Shown here: positions 10,620 through 14,689 of the stretch, piece by piece
How the letters are laid out: the number at the start of each line of letters is the position of its first letter
Position numbering within the stretch: position 1 is the stretch's first letter
NCBI GenBank assembly: GCA_964016885.1
Contig: OZ024742.1
Location: forward strand, 113,336,001-113,400,000
DNA: 64,000 nucleotides
Direction: 5' to 3'
Source of the DNA: Eledone cirrhosa
Taxonomy: Eukaryota
Notes under the pieces: model-generated
Told to the model about the DNA's origin: nothing
The model's input: only the letters and a program-made list of their open reading frames with translations
Databases searched by the model: none
Translations under genes and position numbers: made by a program

Positions 10620-11125
10620 CATGGAACTCTTTTAACCCTCTTTTGTTCTCATATATTATGTATATATATATATATATATATATATATATATATATATATA
10701 TATATATATATGTATATATATATATATATATATATATATATATATGTATATATATATATATATTTATATATATATATATATATATATATATATATATATA
10801 TATATATATATATATATATATATATATATATATATATATATAAATGTAAGTATGTATGTATACGTACATACATATATGTATACAGACGTACAGTAGCATG
10901 CATATATATATATATATATATATATATATATATATATATATACACACATACATATACATATATACATACGGGTACACATACATATATGCACGCATCAGTT
11001 TAGCGGACGCTTATTATAACGGTGTTTTGTTCGTTTGTCAACAAACTGAACAGCCTGAATTTATGCCATACGGTGTTAAGGCAACCACGTCACCTTTTTT
11101 TGTTTTGTTCAACACTGACACAAGG

Positions 11126-11170
11126 AACGATGTACTAGTTTCAAGCTTGTTAGCTATCATCAGCACCGTT
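11126..11170 (-). ncRNA. Minimal type I hammerhead ribozyme (array unit A)
   Basis: aacggtg CTGATGA t-agct-aaca-agct-t GAAA CTAG TA catcgtt on the minus strand. Confidence 0.85.
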
Positions 11171-11649
11171 TACCCATCTGCCAGATAGTTGAACGTTCGA
11201 AAGTATATACTTTCCTTATGAAAATTAACGGCTGAGCAGCCTAATTTGCATAATGAGTGAGTTAAATCGGTCAGGCATACCGAAAACGATAAGTTGAAAA
11301 AATGAAAACGAAATTTCATTTCTCACTCTTAGTATGGCACTTACTTAAATGTAAGTATGTATGTATACGTACATACATATATGTATACAGACGTACAGTA
11401 GTATGCATATATATATATATATATATATATATATATATATATATATATATATATATACATATATATACACATACATATACATATATACATACAGGTACAC
11501 ATACATGTATGCACGCATCAGTTTAGCGGACGATTAATATAACGCCGCTTTGTTCGTTTGTCAACAAACTGAACAGCCTGAATTTATGCCGTTAATTTTC
11601 ATAAGGAAAGTATATACTTTCGAACGTTCAACTATCTGGCAGATGGGTA

Positions 11650-11694
11650 AACGGTGTTGATGATAGCTAACAAGCTTGAAACTAGTACATCGCT
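11650..11694 (+). ncRNA. Minimal hammerhead (unit B), C3-to-U core mutation
   Basis: aacggtg TTGATGA tagctaacaagctt GAAA CTAG TA catcgct. Confidence 0.7.
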
Positions 11695-12103
11695 CCTGTG
11701 TCAGTGTTGAACAAAAAGGTGACGTGGTTGCCTTAAAACCGTATGGCATAAATTCAGGCTGTACAGTTTGTTGACAAACGAACAAAGCGGCGTTATAATA
11801 AGCGTCCGCTAAACTGATGCGTGCATATATGTATGTGTACCTGTATGTATATATGTATATGTATGTGTATATATATATATATATATATATATATATATAT
11901 ATATATATATATATATATATATATATATATATATATATATATATATATGCATGCTACTGTACGTCTGTATACATATATGTATGTACGTATACATACATAC
12001 TCACTTTTAAGTAAGTGCCATACTAAGAGTGAGGAATGAAATTTCGTTTTCATTTTTTCATCTTAACGTTTTCGGTATGCCTGACCGATTTAACTCACTC
12101 AAT

Positions 12104-12111
12104 ATGCAAAT
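12104..12111 (+). promoter_or_regulatory. Octamer motif ATGCAAAT in the repeat unit (also 11244-11251 minus, 12600-12607, 41334-41341)
   Basis: Exact octamer consensus about 80 bp upstream of the HHR core in every unit that includes this segment; function untested. Confidence 0.4.
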
Positions 12112-12184
12112 TAGGCTGCTCAGCCGTTAATTTTCATAAGGAAAGTATATACTTTCGAACGTTCAACTATCTGGCAGATGGGTA

Positions 12185-12229
12185 AACGGTGCTGATGATA
12201 GCTAACAAGCTTGAAACTAGTACATCGTT
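12185..12229 (+). ncRNA. Minimal type I hammerhead (unit C), intact
   Basis: Stem I aacggtg/catcgtt, CTGATGA 12192-12198, GAAA 12213-12216, palindromic ACTAGT; predicted cleavage after GUA at 12222. Confidence 0.87.
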
Positions 12230-12680
12230 CCTGTGTCAGTGTTGAACAAAAAGGTGACGTGGTTGCCTTAACACCGTATGGCATAAATTCAGGCTGTTAA
12301 GTTTTATTGACAAACGAACAAAGCGGCGTTATAATAAGCGTCCGCTAAACTGATGCGTGCATATATGTATGTGTACATGTATGTATATATGTATATATAT
12401 GTGTATATATATATATACATATATATATATATATATATATATATGCATGCTACTGTACGTATGTATACATATATGTATGTACGTATACATACATACTTAC
12501 TTTTAAGTAAGTGCCATACTAAGAGTGAGAAATGAAATTTCGTTTTCATTTTCTCAACTTATCGTTTTCGGTATGCCTGACCGATTTAACTCACTCAATA
12601 TGCAAATTAGGCTGCTCAGCCGTTAATTTTCATAAGGAAAGTATATACTTTCGAACGTTCAACTATCTGGCAGATGGGTA

Positions 12681-12725
12681 AACGGTGCTGATGATAGCTA
12701 ACAAGCTTGAAACTGGTACATCGTT
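12681..12725 (+). ncRNA. Minimal type I hammerhead (unit D)
   Basis: Same as unit C but stem III reads ACTGGT; predicted cleavage after 12718. Confidence 0.8.
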
Positions 12726-14689
12726 CCTGTGTCAGTGTTGAACAAAAAGGTGACGTGGTTGCCTTAACACCGTATGGCATAAATTCAGGCTGTTAAGTTT
12801 TTTTGACAAACGAACAAAGCGGCGTTATAATAAGCGTCCGCTAAACTGATGCGTGCATATACGTATGTGTACCTGTATGTATATATGTATATATATGTGT
12901 GTATATATATATATATATATATATATATATATATATATAAATATATATATATATATATATATATATATATATATAATATATATATAATATATATATATAT
13001 ATGCATGCTACCGTACGTCTGTATACATATATGTATGTACGTATACATACATACTTACATTTAAGTAAGTGCCATACTAAGAGTGAGAAATGAAATTTCG
13101 TTTTCATTTGTACAACTTATATATATATATATATATATATATATATATATATATATATATATATATATATATATATATATATATATAAATATATATATAT
13201 ATATAATATATATATATACAAACGTCTATATGTGAGTGGGGTTGAAAACGTGTATGCATGCGTATCAACATATTTATGTGTCTATTATTATGTGTAAGTG
13301 CATATGTGCGAATATATGTACGGATGCCGCGCGTGTGTGTGTACATGATCTTGTTTTGTTGCATGCACAAGGATATATTTTTAGAGGGGATTTTAATGAA
13401 GTATATCCATTCGTGATTTTTCTGGTGGCTGAAGTATGATGTAAGGAAATTTCGGGAAACCCAGAAAGTTTACGCTAATTTGCCATCTAATTTATATAAC
13501 ATTGACTATATTTACTTCTTTGATTACATAGTAAGGCATCTTATTTAGTGAATACAATCATACAGTTAGGCATTTTAATACACACACACACACACATACA
13601 CACACACACACACACACACACACACACACACACATACATATATATAAATATATATATATATATATATATATATATATATATATATATATATATATATATA
13701 TATATATATATATATATATATATTTATATATATATATATATATATATACATGCATCAACATATAATAATTTTACCGTGCGAGAAATGTTTCATACTTACA
13801 AAACAGTGAGCTTGCTTACAAATTTAATGAATATAAACCTCATCAGGCGAATCCGAAGCACGATATAGAACACATTTTCAGAGACATAATTTACTCTAGA
13901 TTGTATTTTCTGTCGCACAATTCAGATGCTTTTCACCGTTTATGCACAACAAACAATGATATGTATAATGATGGGAATCCTTTTTTAAGCTATACATTTT
14001 ATGACACGTTTTAAAATTGTAAGACAGAAAATAAGCTAGGCGCTATGACTTTGTACGATATGATTTATTCTATGAATAAATTATTTCTCTGTTCAGAATG
14101 TTTTTCCTTACTAGACAACCAATGTCTATGTAATCACTGTCTGACTTATTGCGGACCAAACCATGAGAAATACAAAAGAATGTTTGTAGAATATTATATT
14201 GTGAAGTAAAATAATTTAGTCATTCATCAATTGATTAAATTATCAATATAGATTATCCAAAAATAGATTTTTTGCCAAGGTTATTTTGAAATTAATTTTG
14301 GTCTAGAATTAATTAGGTAGATCTAATAATCCTGCGTACTATGTTTTGTTTCATTGTTCAAGTATGCATATGTGGTGATAAATCTGAAATAATAATCCCC
14401 AACTGAATATGTCATTTTCCTTTTGTTAGTCAGTTAATAGACATCACCAACATATAAACTCTGCAAAGATGTGAATAATGAATCCAATTATTAAACGCTG
14501 TTCTTTTCCCCTTTTTTTGCGCATACGGATACATATAAATACGGATAGATATACCTCCGACGCGATATTTTGGACAGACCTTCGGAATGCATTTCGACTG
14601 TTTCCTATTTGTCTCGCTGTTTTGTAGAGCACACTTTGGACATTAGGATATATACGAGATTAATTTTTCAACCAACAATATACAAACAT

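Follow-up and report, generated by a model that had tools for sequence, protein, structure and literature searches.

Opposed tandem arms and a Penelope-type insertion footprint in a dispersed hammerhead-ribozyme repeat of Eledone cirrhosa

The hammerhead repeat found in the window, i.e. the whole stretch of 64,000 nucleotides of Eledone cirrhosa DNA analysed here, is one insertion of a dispersed non-coding element with two opposed arms, and not a simple tandem satellite. Its inverted 5'-truncated arm, its tail-type ends and its (TA)n target are a Penelope footprint. We consider it probable that the element is a non-LTR retrozyme that was pasted in trans by a Penelope-like RT-endonuclease, which copied a predicted circular monomer from both sides of a (TA)n break. 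Positions within the unit are counted from the predicted cut, such that unit position 1 corresponds to 12223. The insertion, together with a second one from the same family, is composed as follows:

10651..10840: left (TA)n target tract
10841..11590, minus strand: minus arm, 5'-truncated, beginning at unit position 58, with one hammerhead
10841, minus strand: 3' end of the minus arm at the "short" site (unit position 278-283), followed by (TA)n
11588..11590: junction where the 5' ends of both arms meet, with a 3-nt overlap
11588..13120, plus strand: plus arm, 5'-truncated, beginning at unit position 397, with three hammerheads
11688..12222, plus strand: complete site-to-site monomer, 535 nt
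12223..12718, plus strand: complete site-to-site monomer, 496 nt
13059..13120, plus strand: Penelope-type "tail" of 57-62 nt, reaching from the short to the long 3' end site, with two predicted hairpins
13120, plus strand: 3' end of the plus arm at the "long" site (unit position 340), followed by (TA)n
13121..13218: right (TA)n target tract
40891..41716, plus strand: second independent insertion, one-armed, with two hammerheads, a short 3' end and TA on both sides

Since the arms are opposed at 11588-11590, the array combines inverted with tandem order. The first-pass annotation of this DNA had described a tandem array, which holds within each arm and fails at the junction. Its term "satellite" is misleading for a dispersed mobile element with this insertion anatomy. 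The array contains only the two complete site-to-site monomers listed above, of which 12223-12718 is indeed the 496-nt span between two predicted sites that had been put forward as a released monomer. Units follow one another head to tail up to the TA tracts, and both coding capacity and long terminal repeats are absent. Beyond the long end the unit passes into the next unit and not into an open reading frame. Pfam matches were obtained for none of 16 open frames from the window, and the frame with RT and GIY-YIG domains between pLTRs that marks autonomous PLEs is absent from the window element. Because the ends lie inside TA tracts, a target-site duplication is not definable at these insertions.

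The repeat is spread over the genome. The exact 41-nt hammerhead gave 10,032 matches in the 3.0-Gb genome and its reversed control 0, which supplies the copy number for which a genome-wide search had been proposed. The best 40 BLAST candidates had identities of 95-98% and were distributed over many chromosomes. A sister family with units of 466-470 bp was found adjoining a family copy in L007; a pattern that excludes the window family yielded 7,939 genome matches for it. Over the half-unit upstream of the ribozyme the two families align at only ~66%. Other ACUAGU hammerheads accounted for 775 pattern matches; among the 100 listed these were mostly decayed older subfamilies, with no linked open reading frame.

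Insertion ends were surveyed in all clusters among the first 100 pattern matches on C1 (49 stretches with 56 insertions, including neighbours). The loci, all from the first 70 Mb of C1, were chosen by exact hammerhead match, arms of less than 80% identity were dropped, and a few arms were imperfectly split by BLAST. In this set the 3' ends were fixed: 79 of 83 arms stopped at unit positions 265-290 or 328-342, two windows that make up 8% of the unit, and TA repeats followed 75 of the 83. The short and the long site are ~60 nt apart. The 56 insertions included 28 opposed arm pairs, and one short end was combined with one long end in 23 of the 25 two-armed insertions that could be scored (p 2e-5). 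Arms reached lengths of 15-30 units.

This anatomy closely resembles that described for PLEs. According to the text of Craig et al. 2021 (PMC8557442), PLE insertions consist of partial tandems next to which lies an inverted 5'-truncated copy, and they carry a tail of 30-40 bp at one end; (TA)n is a preferred target of Naiads. For a PLE studied in vitro, Frangieh et al. 2024 (PMC11167929) describe the tail as the stretch that separates two internal RT start sites. The EN+ PLEs of these two reports share with the window family the partial tandems, the inverted 5'-truncated arm, the one-ended tail, the two internal RT starts, AT-rich or (TA)n targets and a hammerhead, which they carry in the terminal repeat. 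Unlike them, our family has no open reading frame, its arms extend up to 15-30 units, its hammerhead is extended instead of minimal (see below), and its tail of ~60 nt is longer than 30-40 nt. Non-autonomous head-to-tail Chlamys elements, e.g. MRC1, are also mentioned in this literature.

Elements with a GIY-YIG nuclease are abundant in the genome (10,596 candidates). One of them, L082, has an open frame of 938 aa that matches RT and GIY-YIG and is flanked by terminal repeats. The cysteine motif ahead of its nuclease (motif as in PMC8557442) would class it as Neptune-like; the named relatives of its protein come from bivalves or bivalve-associated assemblies. The L082 family ends in (TA)n at two sites ~63 nt apart, i.e. 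it has a tail equal to that of our family, and uses one end site per arm in L086, L090, L092, L104 and L147. It has the geometry in common with the retrozyme unit, not the sequence. Among the 40 GIY-YIG loci examined (150 listed, 10,596 candidates) there was no PLE sharing sequence with the unit. A tblastn screen over the examined loci gave no PLE protein match inside the units, and at none of the GIY-YIG or tblastn-screened loci did a unit run into a PLE reading frame. Since no PLE with unit sequence was found, the partner enzyme was deduced from the end geometry alone; it is probably a PLE protein of the Neptune-like kind. The possibility raised beforehand that the unit is only the pLTR of a coding PLE was not borne out at the loci examined, though a rare coding parent may exist.

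The window array contains four type I hammerheads:

11126..11170, minus strand: perfect family copy, predicted cut 11133/11132
11650..11694, plus strand: C3 changed to U and one stem I mismatch, predicted cut 11687/11688
12185..12229, plus strand: perfect family copy, predicted cut 12222/12223, extended stem I predicted at ~12171-12239
12681..12725, plus strand: stem III ACUGGU, predicted cut 12718/12719

The unit hammerhead consists of stem I (AACGGUG/CAUCGUU), CUGAUGA, a U-U followed by a stem II of 4 bp, GAAA, the ACUAGU palindrome and a GUA site. This confirms the motif as first annotated, on units of ~460-535 bp where ~500 bp had been given. The core pattern CTGATGA-N8-30-GAAA matched the window 11 times compared to 0.86 expected matches, and none of 100 shuffles reached 11. 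Every unit was said to carry one such motif; a hammerhead is present in each, yet only two of the four are perfect (11163 on the minus and 12192 on the plus strand), those at 11657 and 12688 being changed. The covariance-model search recommended at that stage gave no Rfam match in the window at the gathering cut-off and a weak match to HH9 (18.5 bits, E 0.44). Rfam miRNA matches were rejected as (TA)n artefacts.

Contrary to its initial description as minimal, the hammerhead has a stem I that goes on past a UA bulge into a GG/CC helix, which was invariant in 14 of 14 aligned variants; a further distal helix beyond this extension is predicted. Because of the extended stem I the window hammerhead is not of the minimal PLE type. 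The 14 variants were chosen by us from the window family, the sister family and older subfamilies. Across them the hammerhead pairing was kept in 93.7% of cells, compared to 34-52% in slid controls, and 6 of 17 pairs were changed on both sides (3 in stem I and 3 in stem II), a count that reflects few events, since the variants are related sequences. Structure and covariation predict that the hammerhead is active. Within a monomer, stem III is predicted to form one pair only, while between two copies the ACUAGU palindrome would pair over 6 bp, also with ACUGGU (-6.8 and -6.5 kcal/mol, respectively). The low variation of the catalytic core (0.2% vs 0.85%) was rejected as evidence, since the loci had been picked by exact core match.

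A passive satellite in which the hammerhead is an inert relic would agree with the two mutated hammerheads of the window array. The dispersal over many chromosomes, the fixed ends and the young arrays of zero divergence argue against such a relic, as do the compensatory changes between families that align at only ~66% upstream of the ribozyme, and we regard it as extremely improbable.

The units have a GC content of 0.32-0.34. For the monomer 12223-12718 a linear fold of -173.5 kcal/mol was predicted (z -9.7), much of which comes from a TA hairpin; in the predicted circular fold 70% of this monomer is paired, and units in general are 69-70% paired. Two elements stand out within the unit:

12349..12494, plus strand: long hairpin whose slippery (TA)n core gives rise to the variation in unit length
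12104..12152, plus strand: block ATGCAAAT...TAATTTTCATA...TATATA, conserved with the sister family, candidate promoter or hairpin

Newt satellite 2 has an snRNA-type promoter. In the window family, as in the sister family, an octamer is located upstream of the ribozyme, while the U2 upstream conserved element (a TCAGTGG-type block) is not recognisable in the unit. The octamer is absent from the 6 U2 regions listed, and it is destroyed in one sister-family sub-lineage that occupies 7 loci. An snRNA-type promoter was not supported, as the proximal element of the host U2 genes is absent from the unit.

We next turn to the template. Full units on opposite arms of the same insertion were nearly identical. 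In the window family they were 0.23% apart (44 pairs, two loci) vs 2.9% between loci, and in the sister family 0.00% apart (77 pairs, two loci) vs 3.4% between loci. Young sister arrays resemble clonal copies of a single monomer, on one arm as on the other. One point variant had 12 matches in the genome: it was carried by all 10 units on both arms of the array at C3:82.29 Mb, and the other two matches were lone copies, which leaves no second array as a possible linear template. A second variant marks two arrays (C6 and C2) and one lone copy genome-wide. In the young C6 array 11 of 13 units were identical over both arms; the C2 array, which is older and has 14 haplotypes among its 18 units, contains this uniform unit twice. 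Within a young subfamily (282 marker matches) the unit length depended on the locus (8 loci with at least two units, p 3e-7), and each array had its own TA-tract interruptions on both arms. Two further variants were discarded as one-monomer tests: the one of a sister sub-lineage (69 units, 7 loci) is not private, and the one with 282 units is a subfamily marker. The 5' ends were spread evenly, with 3 of 97 lying within 3 nt of the cut site where ~2 were expected, and insertions or deletions occurred at 0 of 213 matched junctions, at loci that were partly chosen by exact match. Clonal arms, even 5' ends and indel-free junctions favour repeated copying of one covalently closed monomer.

The template of a PLE-mobilised retrozyme could also have been a linear multimer that was transcribed from an existing array and left uncut. 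Multi-copy RNA gives rise to tandem PLE insertions, and unprocessed RNA was the dominant substrate in vitro according to the text of PMC11167929. The absence of a 5' pile-up at the cut site fits a linear multimer as well, the units of the window array are heterogeneous, and the uniformity of one sister-family sub-lineage, in which 58 of 64 units at six loci are identical, is compatible with it; here linear copying from a uniform source may have taken place. A multimeric template is hard to reconcile with the variant at C3:82.29 Mb, which is found in no other array, with the uniform C6 array that matches single units of a heterogeneous older array, and with the arrays of one young sub-lineage, in which the TA-tract pattern is particular to the array and present on both arms. 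Moreover, arms of 15-30 units would need an RNA of 7-14 kb with that many uncut ribozymes. Overall we consider the linear multimer unlikely. As counterpoints to the retrozyme model, the assembly may lack source arrays, the PLE tested in vitro could insert without hammerhead cleavage (PMC11167929), and in vitro cleavage failed for 8 of 9 Xenopus retrozyme dimers in the text of a recent preprint (Li, Clavereau, Pollet 2026, bioRxiv 10.64898/2026.07.22.740005).

The clonal arrays would be accounted for equally well if the template were a cut linear monomer, never closed into a covalent circle, and the RT jumped repeatedly from its 5' end back to its 3' end. Such jumps should leave added or missing bases as well as an excess of 5' ends at the cut, yet indels were found at none of the 213 junctions and only 3 of 97 ends lay at the cut. 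In addition, the RNAs of known retrozymes are, in the published text, largely circular. The probability of a jumping RT is in our judgement low.

A solo pLTR or truncated coding-PLE copy at each locus could instead have grown locally into an array by unequal crossover. This would be in line with the 2026 preprint (bioRxiv 10.64898/2026.07.22.740005), the text of which explains tandems by local amplification and relates Xenopus retrozymes to pLTRs. The ends of our insertions are of PLE type, and local exchange does happen: in long or old arrays, among them two long ones at C4:305.6 Mb and C1:5.74 Mb, variants are common to subsets of units. Against local growth, even the youngest arrays are long, and their two opposed arms are identical; at the loci examined units never run into a PLE frame, and past the long end one unit continues into the next one and not into a frame. 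We assign local growth a very low probability.

The window array itself is heterogeneous. Its two full units are 3.3% apart outside the TA tract, and neighbouring units have variants in common that the opposite arm lacks. As this array is older and heterogeneous, its origin from a single monomer is extrapolated from the sister arrays; its non-clonal state could be explained by later exchange or by a multimeric template, either one. In one sister sub-lineage three clustered A>G changes were seen. A-to-I editing as source of array-wide variants was not supported overall: A>G and T>C changes were in a ratio of 11 to 16 in 91 insertions of the window family (p 0.45) and of 20 to 13 in 27 insertions of the sister family (p 0.22).

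Returning to the circular template, the following sequence of events can be proposed. The array would be transcribed, and neighbouring hammerheads, as predicted from structure and covariation, would cut at GUA and release monomers of 460-535 nt, probably as double hammerheads via the ACUAGU palindrome. The monomer would then be ligated into a circle, as suggested by known retrozymes and the precise junctions. A PLE protein, probably Neptune-like, would cut the (TA)n tract, and two cDNAs would begin at two internal sites ~60 nt apart, corresponding to the observed ends. Each RT would circle the template and fall off at a random place. Joining of both 5' ends would yield the two opposed tandem arms that are observed. 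Finally, TA slippage, point mutation and local exchange would erode the arrays, as seen in older ones including that of the window. That the insertions are the genomic record of such a dual-primed rolling-circle reverse transcription, in which a Neptune-type Penelope enzyme acts in trans on one ribozyme-made RNA circle at both ends of a (TA)n break, is an interpretation we favour slightly.

The assignment as a non-LTR retrozyme, which the first-pass annotation had offered as a candidate, agrees with a non-coding repeat of ~33% GC that has one type I hammerhead per unit, occurs in dispersed short arrays and gives a highly paired predicted monomer. The coral, mussel and axolotl retrozymes in the text of PMC7229834 are likewise non-coding low-GC tandems with one type I hammerhead per unit, thousands of copies and a highly paired monomer. 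Within the axolotl, HHR_Amex1 shares the single-pair palindromic stem III and HHR_Amex2 the U-U at the stem II base with the window family, and these two axolotl motifs cleave better as dimers (PMC7229834). The same text describes newt satellite 2 as a tandem hammerhead repeat whose palindromic stem III is weak and which undergoes cleavage as a dimer. Units are larger here (460-535 nt with an internal (TA)n hairpin vs ~170-400 nt), and opposed arms, fixed internal ends and clonal arrays do not appear in the text of PMC7229834. In turn, RNA and cleavage are shown there, whereas our family is known from sequence alone.

RT of a circle into tandem cDNA by a PLE has been proposed before (Cervera and de la Pena 2020, PMC7229834), and non-LTR retrozymes have been proposed to be non-autonomous PLE derivatives (Li, Clavereau, Pollet 2026). 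The text of that preprint reports tandem type I hammerhead repeats of 51-972 bp, a range that includes our unit length, which are found together with PLEs and are suggested to make use of PLE enzymes. The case made there relies on co-occurrence and pLTR phylogeny, mostly from vertebrates, while ours relies on insertion anatomy; unlike the Xenopus retrozymes described there, the window unit had no pLTR homologue among the loci examined. At the sequence level the family shows every feature of both a non-LTR retrozyme and a non-autonomous PLE, save a sequence link to a coding element.

The retrozyme as a kind of element and PLE rolling-circle copying as a proposal are thus already known; the sequence family appears to be a new member of this kind, and its insertion anatomy is not shown in the text of either paper. 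Outside the supplements of PMC7229834 and of the 2026 preprint, literature searches that covered most papers as listings gave no description of the family, as had been surmised, nor of clonal retrozyme arrays with two arms. Retrozyme circles are known in coral, mussel and axolotl, and the available text presents their return to the genome only as a proposal (PMC7229834; bioRxiv 10.64898/2026.07.22.740005). Dual-primed rolling-circle RT, if true, would close this gap in the life cycle of animal retrozymes and would explain the inverted-arm structure of Penelope insertions generally. The window family yields exact predictions in this respect: the template size, the two RT start sites, the target and, within the same genome, a class of candidate enzymes.

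Contigs from four sequencing runs of unknown kind, a data type that cannot show circles, contained related sequence in three cases (X1, X5, X6) and none in one, gave no listed joints and do not enter the argument. Together, window and sister family amount to ~18,000 hammerhead pattern matches in the genome. As their youngest arrays have zero divergence, the retrozyme system is probably active now.

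The main family, i.e. the dispersed non-coding hammerhead repeat of the two-armed array in the window, is found on chromosome C4 as an array of more than 35 units that run in one direction only (305.634-305.653 Mb; stretches L137 and L138). Many variants are common to subsets of its units. This array is an insertion on its way to a true satellite. Older subfamilies with 70-85% identity and unchanged ends were found in five further stretches of the genome (L012, L092, L113, L237 and L263), which shows that the main family was active in several waves.

A sister retrozyme family with units of 466-470 bp lacks the TA core and shares the two-armed design of the main family. 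Its two end sites lie about 69 nt apart and its arms comprise up to 31 units. It was located at:

L007, 1950-3371
chromosome C1, 30.83 Mb
chromosome C1, 5.74 Mb

Within this family, a sub-lineage of 69 units at 7 loci (L171/L172, L191-L197) has lost the octamer, a motif upstream of the ribozyme, to a cluster of three A>G changes. This cluster could be a single fixed editing event. At L197 the 5'-most unit has a haplotype different from the rest, perhaps due to a template switch. The octamer was not found within 300 nt of the U2 snRNA genes in six upstream regions (L218-L221, L233, L234); five of the six contain a TCA(G/A)TGG(A/G)TGT...TAGTAAAATAT block.

Further hammerhead repeats, a hammerhead candidate, Penelope-like remnants and an open stretch in the window are:

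10480-10650, plus strand, and 9200-9420, minus strand: pieces of a second hammerhead repeat with long stem II and palindromic AUGCGCAU stem III
33147 (minus), 55189 (minus), 56050 (plus) and 58103 (minus): four copies of a third hammerhead family with AT-only stem III
51060-51115, plus strand: lone candidate for a type I hammerhead; its stem III is the palindrome ACAGAUCUGU and its site GUC
17918-19624, minus strand: open stretch of 568 codons, spanning a gap of 200 N (17960-18159)
35830-37267, plus strand: Penelope-like RT/GIY-YIG frame remnant, recognized by eye only and without Pfam match
43165-43758, minus strand: Penelope-like RT/GIY-YIG frame remnant
46075-47135, minus strand: Penelope-like RT/GIY-YIG frame remnant

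The second-repeat piece at 10480-10650 runs out into the (TA)n tract that the main array entered. The 568-codon stretch, for which Pfam returned no match, is possibly a DNA-transposon remnant. The three Penelope-like remnants belong to different families. In L086 and L099, the hammerhead motif of the second repeat adjoins Penelope-like frames.
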